Positions 15,771 through 16,972 of a DNA stretch of 18,550 nt are shown here, piece by piece; the first letter of the stretch is position 1, and every line of letters starts with the position of its first letter. The notes below the pieces were generated by a model. The model had not been told where the DNA came from, did not search any database, and was given only the letters and a program-made list of their open reading frames with translations. This DNA comes from a virus: the UHGV virus genome UHGV-1832352; one strand, 5' to 3'. Both the position numbers and the translations under genes were made by a program.

Positions 15771-15944
15771 TCATGCTGCTTTGCGACGACGAAGCTTACC
15801 CTGCTGCTCTTTACCAGAGACAGTAGCGTGAGTGAACGCATTAGGAGCAGCCTTCATCAGAACTTCAACAGCAGCACCCATACCTGCGAATGCTTTCATT
15901 GTGTCGAACTTAACCTGTGGCTTGGTTGCTTTTTGATCTTCCAT
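15771..15944 (-). CDS. Hypothetical small protein (57 aa, MEDQKATKPQVKFDTMKAFAGMGAAVEVLMKAAPNAFTHATVSGKEQQGKLRRRKAA)
   Basis: Not in the ORF track (below cutoff). ATG at 15944 with GGAG SD and 6-nt spacer; stop at 15771-15773 immediately before the terminator. Confidence 0.4.
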   Translation of the reverse strand: MEDQKATKPQVKFDTMKAFAGMGAAVEVLMKAAPNAFTHATVSGKEQQGKLRRRKAA

Positions 15945-15983
15945 AGAAAACTCCAGAAGCTATACCGAAACAATTCCTGTTGT

Positions 15984-16403
15984 TTACTCATCATCAATAG
16001 ATGATACGCAATATTTATTTTTAAATTTAAGGTTCTTTGGCGTAACTTCATCAGATATATCAAAACCGTCCAGAATTCTATTGAATGTAGCTTCTGGCAT
16101 ATCATCATGAACGGAAATCTCACCCGATCGCTGCTTTCTAACCATGTTATCCACTCGCCAAATTATAGCTTCAGCGTAAACAACATAACTTGGATGCTTG
16201 ATAAAGCGATGATCACCAGAATTCAAGACGCAAGACGGATCGTGGGGGACACCATCCTTGATACTAGAAATATTAACAACTAAAACACAATAACAATCGT
16301 TAACGGGGTAATAAACAGGATCATTACAAATCACATGAAGATGATTGCATGGCCCAGTTGGGGCAAGCACAGTTCCTTTCCTGTATGGCTGATAATCCGT
16401 CAT
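15984..16403 (-). CDS. Hypothetical protein (139 aa), candidate toxin/effector partner of the Panacea-domain protein
   Basis: ATGA overlap with the upstream gene at 16400-16403 (translational coupling); AT-rich; Cys/His-rich N-terminal half; no family recognised. Confidence 0.65.
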   Translation of the reverse strand: MTDYQPYRKGTVLAPTGPCNHLHVICNDPVYYPVNDCYCVLVVNISSIKDGVPHDPSCVLNSGDHRFIKHPSYVVYAEAIIWRVDNMVRKQRSGEISVHDDMPEATFNRILDGFDISDEVTPKNLKFKNKYCVSSIDDE

Positions 16404-16972
16404 GATAATTGCAAAGAAAATTCCTTAAGTTTCTGAGATTCTTCCATTTTGCCAATTATACGATTAGCCTCATCCTCGCTTTTACCCTCACTGATCAGCA
16501 TTTCTTTCAGGTCTATAGGCTTACGAGAATTGCCAGGATTGTGCCACTCTGGACAAACGCTTTCTAAATGCGTCATGTTTGCGAGATCAAATCGGTTCAT
16601 ATGCCCATACAGAGAATAGATTTCATCTAAAATCCGGATATCTGCACGGCTCAACTCATCAAAGACCTCGTCTGCATCCATTTCCCTCGGATCTGAACGC
16701 AACAACACATCATGCCCGTTCGTCTCTATCAGGTTGTACCAGTAGTCACCAATACCTTCAGCCTTACCACGAATCAAGTTCAGCGTATTCGACATGACTG
16801 GACCAAATTTCATAGAGTAAAGGCTATCTTCGCCGATCATCCTGCCATGCTTCAAAATCGACTTGCGGTTAGACAGATAGAGCAGCTTCATCAATTTCAG
16901 ATATGCCATGCGCCCACCTCGCTTAAGAAGTAGGTATGCAGCCATTTGAGCTACTTTTTCTTCGCAAAACAT
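16400..16972 (-). CDS. Panacea/DUF4065-domain protein (SocA/PanA-like antitoxin-type, 190 aa)
   Basis: N-terminus ...VAQMAAYLLLKRGGRMAYLKLMKLLYLSNR...FGPV... follows the DUF4065 pattern (hydrophobic helix, KLxKLLY, GPV) as I recall it; AT-rich. Confidence 0.7.
   Translation of the reverse strand: MFCEEKVAQMAAYLLLKRGGRMAYLKLMKLLYLSNRKSILKHGRMIGEDSLYSMKFGPVMSNTLNLIRGKAEGIGDYWYNLIETNGHDVLLRSDPREMDADEVFDELSRADIRILDEIYSLYGHMNRFDLANMTHLESVCPEWHNPGNSRKPIDLKEMLISEGKSEDEANRIIGKMEESQKLKEFSLQLS

Follow-up and report, generated by a model that had tools for sequence, protein, structure and literature searches.

A putative PanA-PanT toxin-antitoxin cassette near the attachment site of a lambdoid prophage integrated in dusA of Escherichia coli

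The viral stretch UHGV-1832352, 18,550 nucleotides (nt) long and hereafter called the window in its entirety, carries three minus-strand open reading frames (ORFs) of 190, 139 and 57 amino acids (aa) between positions 15771 and 16972. We conclude that the two larger genes very probably encode a type II PanA-PanT toxin-antitoxin (TA) cassette, which a dusA-integrating lambdoid prophage of Escherichia coli carries as cargo at its attachment-site end. The pair is read as a Panacea antitoxin with its cognate toxin because (i) a Panacea gene precedes the toxin gene in every locus that could be assessed, (ii) the partner is predicted to adopt a toxin fold and (iii) both genes are homologous to an experimentally validated pair. 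We hold the TA assignment with considerable confidence, and the chemistry proposed for PanT with less. Judging by homology, the window pair adds one more copy to a system already known, as the E. coli prophage member of a validated PanAT class. A sequence-only reading of the same DNA had already proposed a 139-aa toxin neutralised by a Panacea protein, and the three lines of evidence above argue for that proposal. The same reading took the partner for an undescribed protein of no recognisable family. Neither statement survives, since the partner falls within T6, one of the toxin clusters catalogued by Kurata et al. 2022 (PNAS 119:e2102212119, PMC8832971), which contains a validated Pseudomonas moraviensis member, and structure prediction followed by a fold search assigns it a MazF-type fold. 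The features discussed below are the following.

16400 to 16972, minus strand: panA, first gene of the operon, encoding a predicted 190-aa standalone Panacea-domain antitoxin (PF13274 match).
15984 to 16403, minus strand: panT, encoding a putative 139-aa toxin of MazF-type predicted fold in Kurata cluster T6, the start of the gene overlapping the end of panA.
15771 to 15944, minus strand: the 57-aa ORF, a phage-backbone gene (phrog_2741 match) outside the cassette.
17099 to 17127, minus strand: promoter-like candidate TTGACC-17-TAAACT, 9/12 matches in a consensus scan.
15727 to 15752, minus strand: intrinsic terminator ending the minus-strand unit; its 11-bp stem includes 6 GC pairs and precedes a T-run.
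15955 to 17165, no strand: cargo cassette of ~1.2 kb (panT, panA and the upstream region), defined by a gap in the matching of phage mEp460.
17227 to 17333, minus strand: attachment (att) overlap with an orphan dusA 5' fragment in the orientation of panA, marking the prophage end.

The three ORFs had been recognised from the sequence with these lengths, strand and positions, and can be considered real genes rather than chance ones because homologues of the 139-aa protein are abundant and the 57-aa ORF has a full-length match to phrog_2741 (E = 8e-36). The overlap of the two larger genes, likewise seen at the outset, is present: the panA stop and the panT start share an ATGA overlap (sequence caattatcATGAcgg), which implies that translation of the two genes would be coupled.

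The 190-aa protein is a predicted Panacea-domain antitoxin. Its DUF4065/Panacea character had been guessed from the motifs KLMKLLYL and FGPV, both of which it contains, and a hidden Markov model search agrees: PF13274 (SocA_Panacea) matches residues 27-137 over profile positions 1-109 of 113, with E = 1.8e-18 and 67.9 bits (cut-off 25.7). The GPV motif, reported to be critical for neutralisation (PMC8832971), lies at G57-P58-V59 and is invariant in an alignment of 61 PanA sequences. In the AlphaFold2 model (predicted local distance difference test, pLDDT, 94.5; predicted template modelling score, pTM, 0.90), the protein is folded over its full length, ends in a helix at residues 166-189 and has no extra N-terminal domain. 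The NCBI Prokaryotic Genome Annotation Pipeline (PGAP) names it 'Panacea domain-containing protein' (WP_000458583.1).

An argument for a dedicated pair comes from its neighbourhoods. A scan of one genome per species retrieved 32 loci with a PanT relative, spread across the Proteobacteria over Enterobacterales, Vibrionaceae, Methylococcales, Sutterella, Burkholderiales and several alphaproteobacterial orders; 30 of them were assessable, their upstream DNA being present and unmasked. In 30/30, a same-strand ORF of ~184-195 aa ends at the toxin start or within a few nt of it, often with ATGA, and encodes a PF13274 protein that aligns over its full length to the window PanA with 27-87% identity. 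The genes flanking the pair vary from one locus to another. Since the upstream pairing is strict and the surroundings are variable, the two genes appear to form a mobile and co-evolving module; neighbourhood conservation had been suggested at the outset as a check on the proposed pairing, and it turns out in its favour. Several temperate phages also carry a member of the PanT family; their hosts are Yersinia, Vibrio, Pseudomonas and Klebsiella. In Pseudomonas sp. TNT2022 ID357 (1244-5098 of the compared stretch), the pair lies ~0.7 kb 3' of a Phd/ParE TA system and ~0.5 kb 5' of a phage-type integrase gene, as if mobile TA modules had gathered there in a small island.

The link to an experimentally studied system goes through the survey of Panacea neighbourhoods by Kurata et al. 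2022, in which nine pairs were validated. One of these is the P. moraviensis pair (PanT, WP_083201923.1; PanA, WP_083354365.1), whose toxin is assigned to cluster T6 in Dataset S1 (PMC8832971). This PanT is toxic in E. coli, is neutralised by PanA and pulled down with it, and specifically blocks the incorporation of 35S-methionine (PMC8832971). The P. moraviensis and B. ruminantium PanT proteins have no match in CDD, resemble EndoA/PemK/MazF in HHpred and inhibit protein synthesis specifically (PMC8832971). The copy of Dataset S1 that we used holds 57 T6 entries, with the antitoxin gene before the toxin gene, overlaps of typically -1 or -4 and PanA described as 'noNTD'; T6 lists Pantoea septica LMG 5345, 'Yersiniaceae bacterium 2016Iso4', Proteus vulgaris, Pluralibacter gergoviae and Methyloprofundus (PMC8832971). 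The toxin of the 2016-Iso4 strain (Chimaeribacter coloradensis) is exactly T6 accession WP_101821906.1, and the window PanT, being 57% identical to this listed member, is placed in T6; its identity to the toxin of Pantoea septica LMG 5345 is 56%. RefSeq gives the name 'terminase' to three Pasteurellales T6 toxins (from Histophilus, Haemophilus and Pasteurella); for a small MazF-fold protein this is almost certainly an annotation error passed from record to record.

For the P. moraviensis pair itself, the supplement of PMC8832971 gives the PanA N-terminus MIFSEQKVAQ and, from primers, the toxin ends MPGNIL... and ...IRQNNF; these toxin ends were looked for among the retrieved PanT family members and were not found. 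The PanA of Pseudomonas sp. TNT2022 ID357 has the identical N-terminal decapeptide, MIFSEQKVAQ, and the accompanying toxin gene overlaps panA by 1 nt, as in the P. moraviensis pair, and encodes a protein that starts with MPGNIV and ends in ...LRNNNL. With this pair as a stand-in, the window PanT is 43% identical to the toxin over 120 residues (E = 1e-32) and the window PanA 41% identical to the antitoxin over 183 residues (E = 2e-31), both identities being to a relative and not to the P. moraviensis proteins themselves. On this homology, the window pair is assigned to the same two families as the experimentally validated PanAT pair.

PanT itself falls into a large family that databases leave nameless. 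As had been noted, the protein is rich in Cys and His (6 Cys and 6 His counted from the translation, 8.6% of residues). Searches against Pfam, NCBIfam and PADLOC returned no family, the only matches being chance ones (ICMT at E = 0.05, aminotransferases at 17 bits), and PHROGs returned phrog_19071 alone, a family of unknown function. A first homologue search found 62 clusters, all named 'hypothetical'; an exhaustive profile search raised this to 2,703 representatives at 50% identity (E <= 1e-3), and 929 of these reach E <= 1e-10. The annotated start of the gene, in the stretch 16370-16403, deserves a comment here. In all E. coli genomes inspected, RefSeq/PGAP begins the toxin at a GTG, which yields a 128-aa protein (WP_014640052.1), 11 residues short. 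We favour the ATG at 16403, within the ATGA overlap, because P6, K9, G10 and T11, all upstream of the GTG, are conserved in the first PanT alignment; the RefSeq start of panT looks systematically wrong.

The AlphaFold model of PanT (pLDDT 90.1, pTM 0.84) is predicted to be a barrel of the MazF/CcdB type: all 50 top matches in Foldseek are MazF structures, with probabilities of 0.85-1.0 and target-normalised template modelling scores of 0.49-0.63. Conservation among 93 diverse family members is concentrated on a few polar residues (H21 in 93, S/T47 in 91, D55 in 91, C58 in 90, H65 in 92, S/T72 in 93 and Y76 in 91). H21 stands at the start of strand beta-2 and S/T47 closes strand beta-3; in topology, they appear to correspond to Arg29 and Thr52 of MazF. 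In an hhalign alignment with MazF, itself not significant, S47 falls opposite T52 and H21 opposite H28. A 24-residue loop (48-71), for which the model is confident but shows no regular secondary structure, contains D55, C58 and H65. The model also shows a beta1-beta2 loop of two residues only and an extra C-terminal helix. The window PanT has additional Cys and His residues (H23, C26), which are conserved in the enterobacterial subgroup only.

We propose the following scheme for the cassette. panA and panT would be transcribed on one minus-strand transcript, antitoxin first, with translation coupled via ATGA. Transcription would probably start at a promoter inside the cassette, with possible extra read-through from the host yjbM/dusA side. 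PanA, with its single Panacea domain, would neutralise PanT by direct binding, presumably through the Panacea core; direct toxin binding has been reported for standalone-Panacea antitoxins (PMC10440598). PanT, once free, would halt growth through a block on translation, for which it would probably act as an endoribonuclease, with an active site putatively built from the invariant His21 and from Ser/Thr47 on a MazF-like surface. The biological role would be prophage stabilisation and/or phage exclusion.

Several points weigh against this reading. Toxicity, neutralisation, complex formation and translation inhibition are known from the literature for a homologue, not for the window pair, and the comparison with that homologue went through the Pseudomonas sp. 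stand-in. The P. moraviensis PanT also caused weak membrane depolarisation, and what was shown for it is inhibition of translation rather than RNase activity (PMC8832971). At the sequence level, a Pfam scan of the 93 diverse family members found no common family and zero matches to PF02452, profile searches of PDB sequences with a narrow and a broad alignment gave chance matches only (E ~0.3), and hhalign of the family profile against the single sequences of E. coli MazF and ChpB gave probabilities of 0.3-0.4%. The canonical catalytic Arg of MazF is replaced in the PanT family, and the unexplained conservation of Asp55, Cys58 and His65 may mean that the chemistry differs from that of MazF. Finally, the promoter-like site is a candidate only, such sites being no commoner in the scan than in shuffled sequence.

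The departures from MazF lend themselves to another interpretation, in which PanT uses the MazF/CcdB barrel for an activity other than that of an RNase, either poisoning gyrase as CcdB does or acting through a metal-dependent set formed by His21, Asp55, Cys58 and His65. The non-conserved catalytic Arg and the at least 97% conservation of D55, C58 and H65 in an ordered 24-residue loop, a pattern typical of metal ligands, would be in line with it; yet H21 and S/T47 appear to occupy the MazF catalytic positions, and the validated T6 homologue inhibited protein synthesis specifically and not DNA synthesis (PMC8832971). We consider a non-RNase activity decidedly unlikely and retain an endoribonuclease-like translation inhibitor as the preferred reading of PanT.

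As for the setting of the pair, the window represents an E. coli lambdoid prophage that interrupts dusA at its 5' end, near yjbM (DUF2713), zur, dinF and lexA. In genomes without the prophage, the match to the window is host-only and begins at 17227, while the match of the free phage Lys8385Vzw is continuous across 15400-17333 and extends to 17333; the att overlap is thus placed at ~17227-17333, where PGAP annotates a truncated tRNA-dihydrouridine synthase, the orphan 5' fragment of dusA. Because the integrase gene comes immediately after the att-side region in the phage genome, the module is located between xis and attP. The neighbour that had been called excisionase-like encodes a PrtN-family protein (PF11112, E = 4e-23) and is labelled excisionase in phage mEp460.

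That the pair is prophage cargo, as had been suggested, is borne out by mEp460. Its similarity to the window covers 15400-15954, with xis and the 57-aa ORF (97.5% nucleotide identity), and resumes at 17166-17333, the stretch between being unmatched. Since mEp460 shares both flanks and carries another gene inside, ~15955-17165 is a cargo cassette, and the slot between the 57-aa ORF and attP/int is interchangeable cargo. The cassette contains panT, panA and 193 nt of upstream region including the weak promoter-like site. The gene that occupies the same slot in mEp460, gp23 (3942-4475 of the compared mEp460 stretch), encodes a different 177-aa protein without a Pfam match. Among 5,426 complete E. 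coli genomes, 208 (~4%) carry the pair and 565 the segment with xis and the 57-aa ORF. The four E. coli genomes inspected all show exo, PrtN, the 57-aa ORF, the toxin, PanA and att at the same dusA site, with mosaic genes upstream.

The orphan dusA fragment and yjbM (17227-17690) share the strand of panA, panT and the 57-aa ORF, and zero terminator-like sites were seen between them and the operon. Given this common orientation and the lack of terminator-like sites, read-through in a lysogen from the promoter of the disrupted host dusA into the TA operon is possible.

The sequence-only reading had included the 57-aa ORF in the same unit, and one may imagine a three-gene module in which this ORF is a functional third part, as a chaperone, a second antitoxin or a regulator. 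It lies on the same strand, 39 nt 3' of panT, and the interval holds no terminator; its Shine-Dalgarno (SD) sequence is good, as had been noticed (GGAG, 8 nt 5' of its ATG), and it has a terminator in common with the unit; and it is kept in all sampled E. coli copies of the pair. Against this, the ORF lies beyond the cassette boundary at 15955 and stays beside xis when the pair is missing, both in mEp460 (within the 15400-15954 match) and in ~360 E. coli genomes that carry it with xis but without the pair. Conversely, the loci of Kosakonia and Pluralibacter, in which panT directly abuts the PrtN gene, do not contain it, nor do any of the other inter-species loci, in which the pair alone is conserved. 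Its GC content (48.3%) is that of the backbone (47.3% for the prophage part of the window), unlike that of the cassette, and the early remark that it is more GC-rich than its neighbours is correct. Searches of the 57-aa ORF against Pfam, NCBIfam and PADLOC gave zero family matches. A three-gene module is highly improbable in our view: the 57-aa ORF is a phage-backbone gene and not a component of the TA module, and is probably co-transcribed 3' of panT.

The panA gene has an SD sequence, GAGG, 9 nt 5' of its ATG, and a scan of the minus strand from panA to 15752 found zero terminator-like sites, including between the three genes. The terminator hairpin (15752-15727) begins 18 nt after the stop of the 57-aa ORF and is common to the minus-strand unit and the convergent xis/PrtN gene. 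The claim that this terminator is bidirectional stands for the minus strand, where the hairpin is followed by a T-run, but less so for the plus strand, where only four T follow the stem. An Rfam scan at E <= 1 gave sub-threshold matches only, 7/8 of them on the terminator hairpin, and no known RNA antitoxin or small RNA is evident from it. The two larger genes had both been described as markedly AT-rich; this holds for panT (38.6% GC, 31% at third codon positions) but panA (43.1%) is only mildly so, and the 57-aa ORF is like the backbone.

The promoter-like site lies 127 nt 5' of the panA ATG, inside the cassette, in the segment missing from mEp460. A search for repeats and operators 5' of panA found short repeats only, of uncertain meaning. 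The palindrome AACTAGTT is present twice, 117 nt apart, in 17078-17099 and 17195-17211, the two copies flanking the promoter-like site; each is followed by TTGTTT(G/T)TCAA, immediately in 17195-17211 and after four bases in 17078-17099. These copies could be an operator for autoregulation or arm-type sites for Int/Xis.

A rival view, which concerns the role of the cassette and does not conflict with the TA mechanism, is that the pair primarily serves its lysogen as an abortive-infection or anti-phage defence system. Under such a scheme, the Panacea domain would sense an incoming phage and free the MazF-like toxin, translation would stop and lysogens would be protected. The variable cargo slot at the att-proximal prophage end, filled by a different gene in mEp460, fits with this, and so do the occurrence of the PanT family in temperate phages of the four genera named above and the Pseudomonas homologue adjoining another TA pair and an integrase. 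Ernits et al. 2023 have in addition hypothesised a sensory role for Panacea and TA networks linked to defence systems (PMC10440598). However, none of the three proteins has a family match in PADLOC-DB v2 at E <= 0.1, no phage-challenge data on the pair were found in the literature searched, no other recognised defence genes adjoin the pair in the window, and a position at the prophage end fits addiction or stabilisation equally well. A role in phage defence is plausible, but speculation, and as the primary function of the pair we regard it as a rather doubtful possibility. A bolder combination would make T6 a distinct MazF-fold branch without a Pfam or NCBIfam model, with non-MazF chemistry (His in place of Arg, and a metal bound by Asp55/Cys58/His65), and would make the cassette an abortive-infection switch expressed in the lysogen, partly by dusA read-through, with Panacea sensing the phage; we think this unlikely. 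A prophage-borne PanA-PanT pair, acting in stabilisation and/or exclusion, is the reading we keep.

The value of this assignment lies mainly in annotation: a family of at least 2,703 representatives is called 'hypothetical' and has no model in Pfam, NCBIfam or PADLOC despite a validated member. Current understanding is not overturned, the combination of Panacea with a MazF-like toxin being already established. What keeps the system of interest is the size of this toxin family without a model, the departure of its conserved residues from canonical MazF and the handiness of an E. coli system. If phage exclusion or prophage stabilisation were confirmed, the variable slot would gain one more cargo function, and the pair would offer a tractable E. 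coli system to learn what the Panacea domain senses.

Four known systems help to situate the pair. With Caulobacter SocA-SocB, a type VI TA system, it has the Pfam antitoxin domain SocA_Panacea in common. A SocAB-type assignment was rejected, the NCBIfam SocA equivalog NF047745 scoring 13.5 bits against a cut-off of 190; the window partner is set apart from SocB by its MazF-like predicted fold, without direct comparison of the two. Whereas SocA serves as an adaptor for ClpXP, the PanA proteins that accompany T6-type toxins bind these in stable complexes (PMC8832971). The PanAT pair of Shiga toxin-producing E. coli O31 (PanT, WP_000019185.1), the only E. coli pair validated in that study (PMC8832971), also has the antitoxin domain in common with the window pair. 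Identity with it was rejected as well, its toxin being a small membrane-depolarising protein of cluster T3, unrelated to the MazF-fold partner.

MazF/PemK/Kid toxins (PF02452; E. coli MazF, PDB 1ub4/5ck9) resemble PanT in being small toxins encoded after their antitoxin; a PanT homologue inhibits translation, as MazF does, and a Ser/Thr is conserved at what appears to be the position of MazF Thr52. Unlike MazF, PanT has no detectable sequence similarity to the family, a His in place of the catalytic Arg, a two-residue beta1-beta2 loop, a long ordered 48-71 loop with its Asp, Cys and His, and an extra C-terminal helix, and its antitoxin is a Panacea protein and not one of the MazE/AbrB type. 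The P. moraviensis PanAT differs from the window pair in its setting, being classed as 'NotPhage' in Kurata et al. 2022 whereas the window pair is found in E. coli on a dusA-integrating prophage, and the window PanT has 7 extra N-terminal and ~7 extra C-terminal residues besides the additional H23 and C26. The two are alike in the following: the antitoxin gene comes before the toxin gene with an overlapping stop and start, PanA is free of an extra N-terminal domain, and PanT, with no match in family databases, is MazF-like by structure-based methods.

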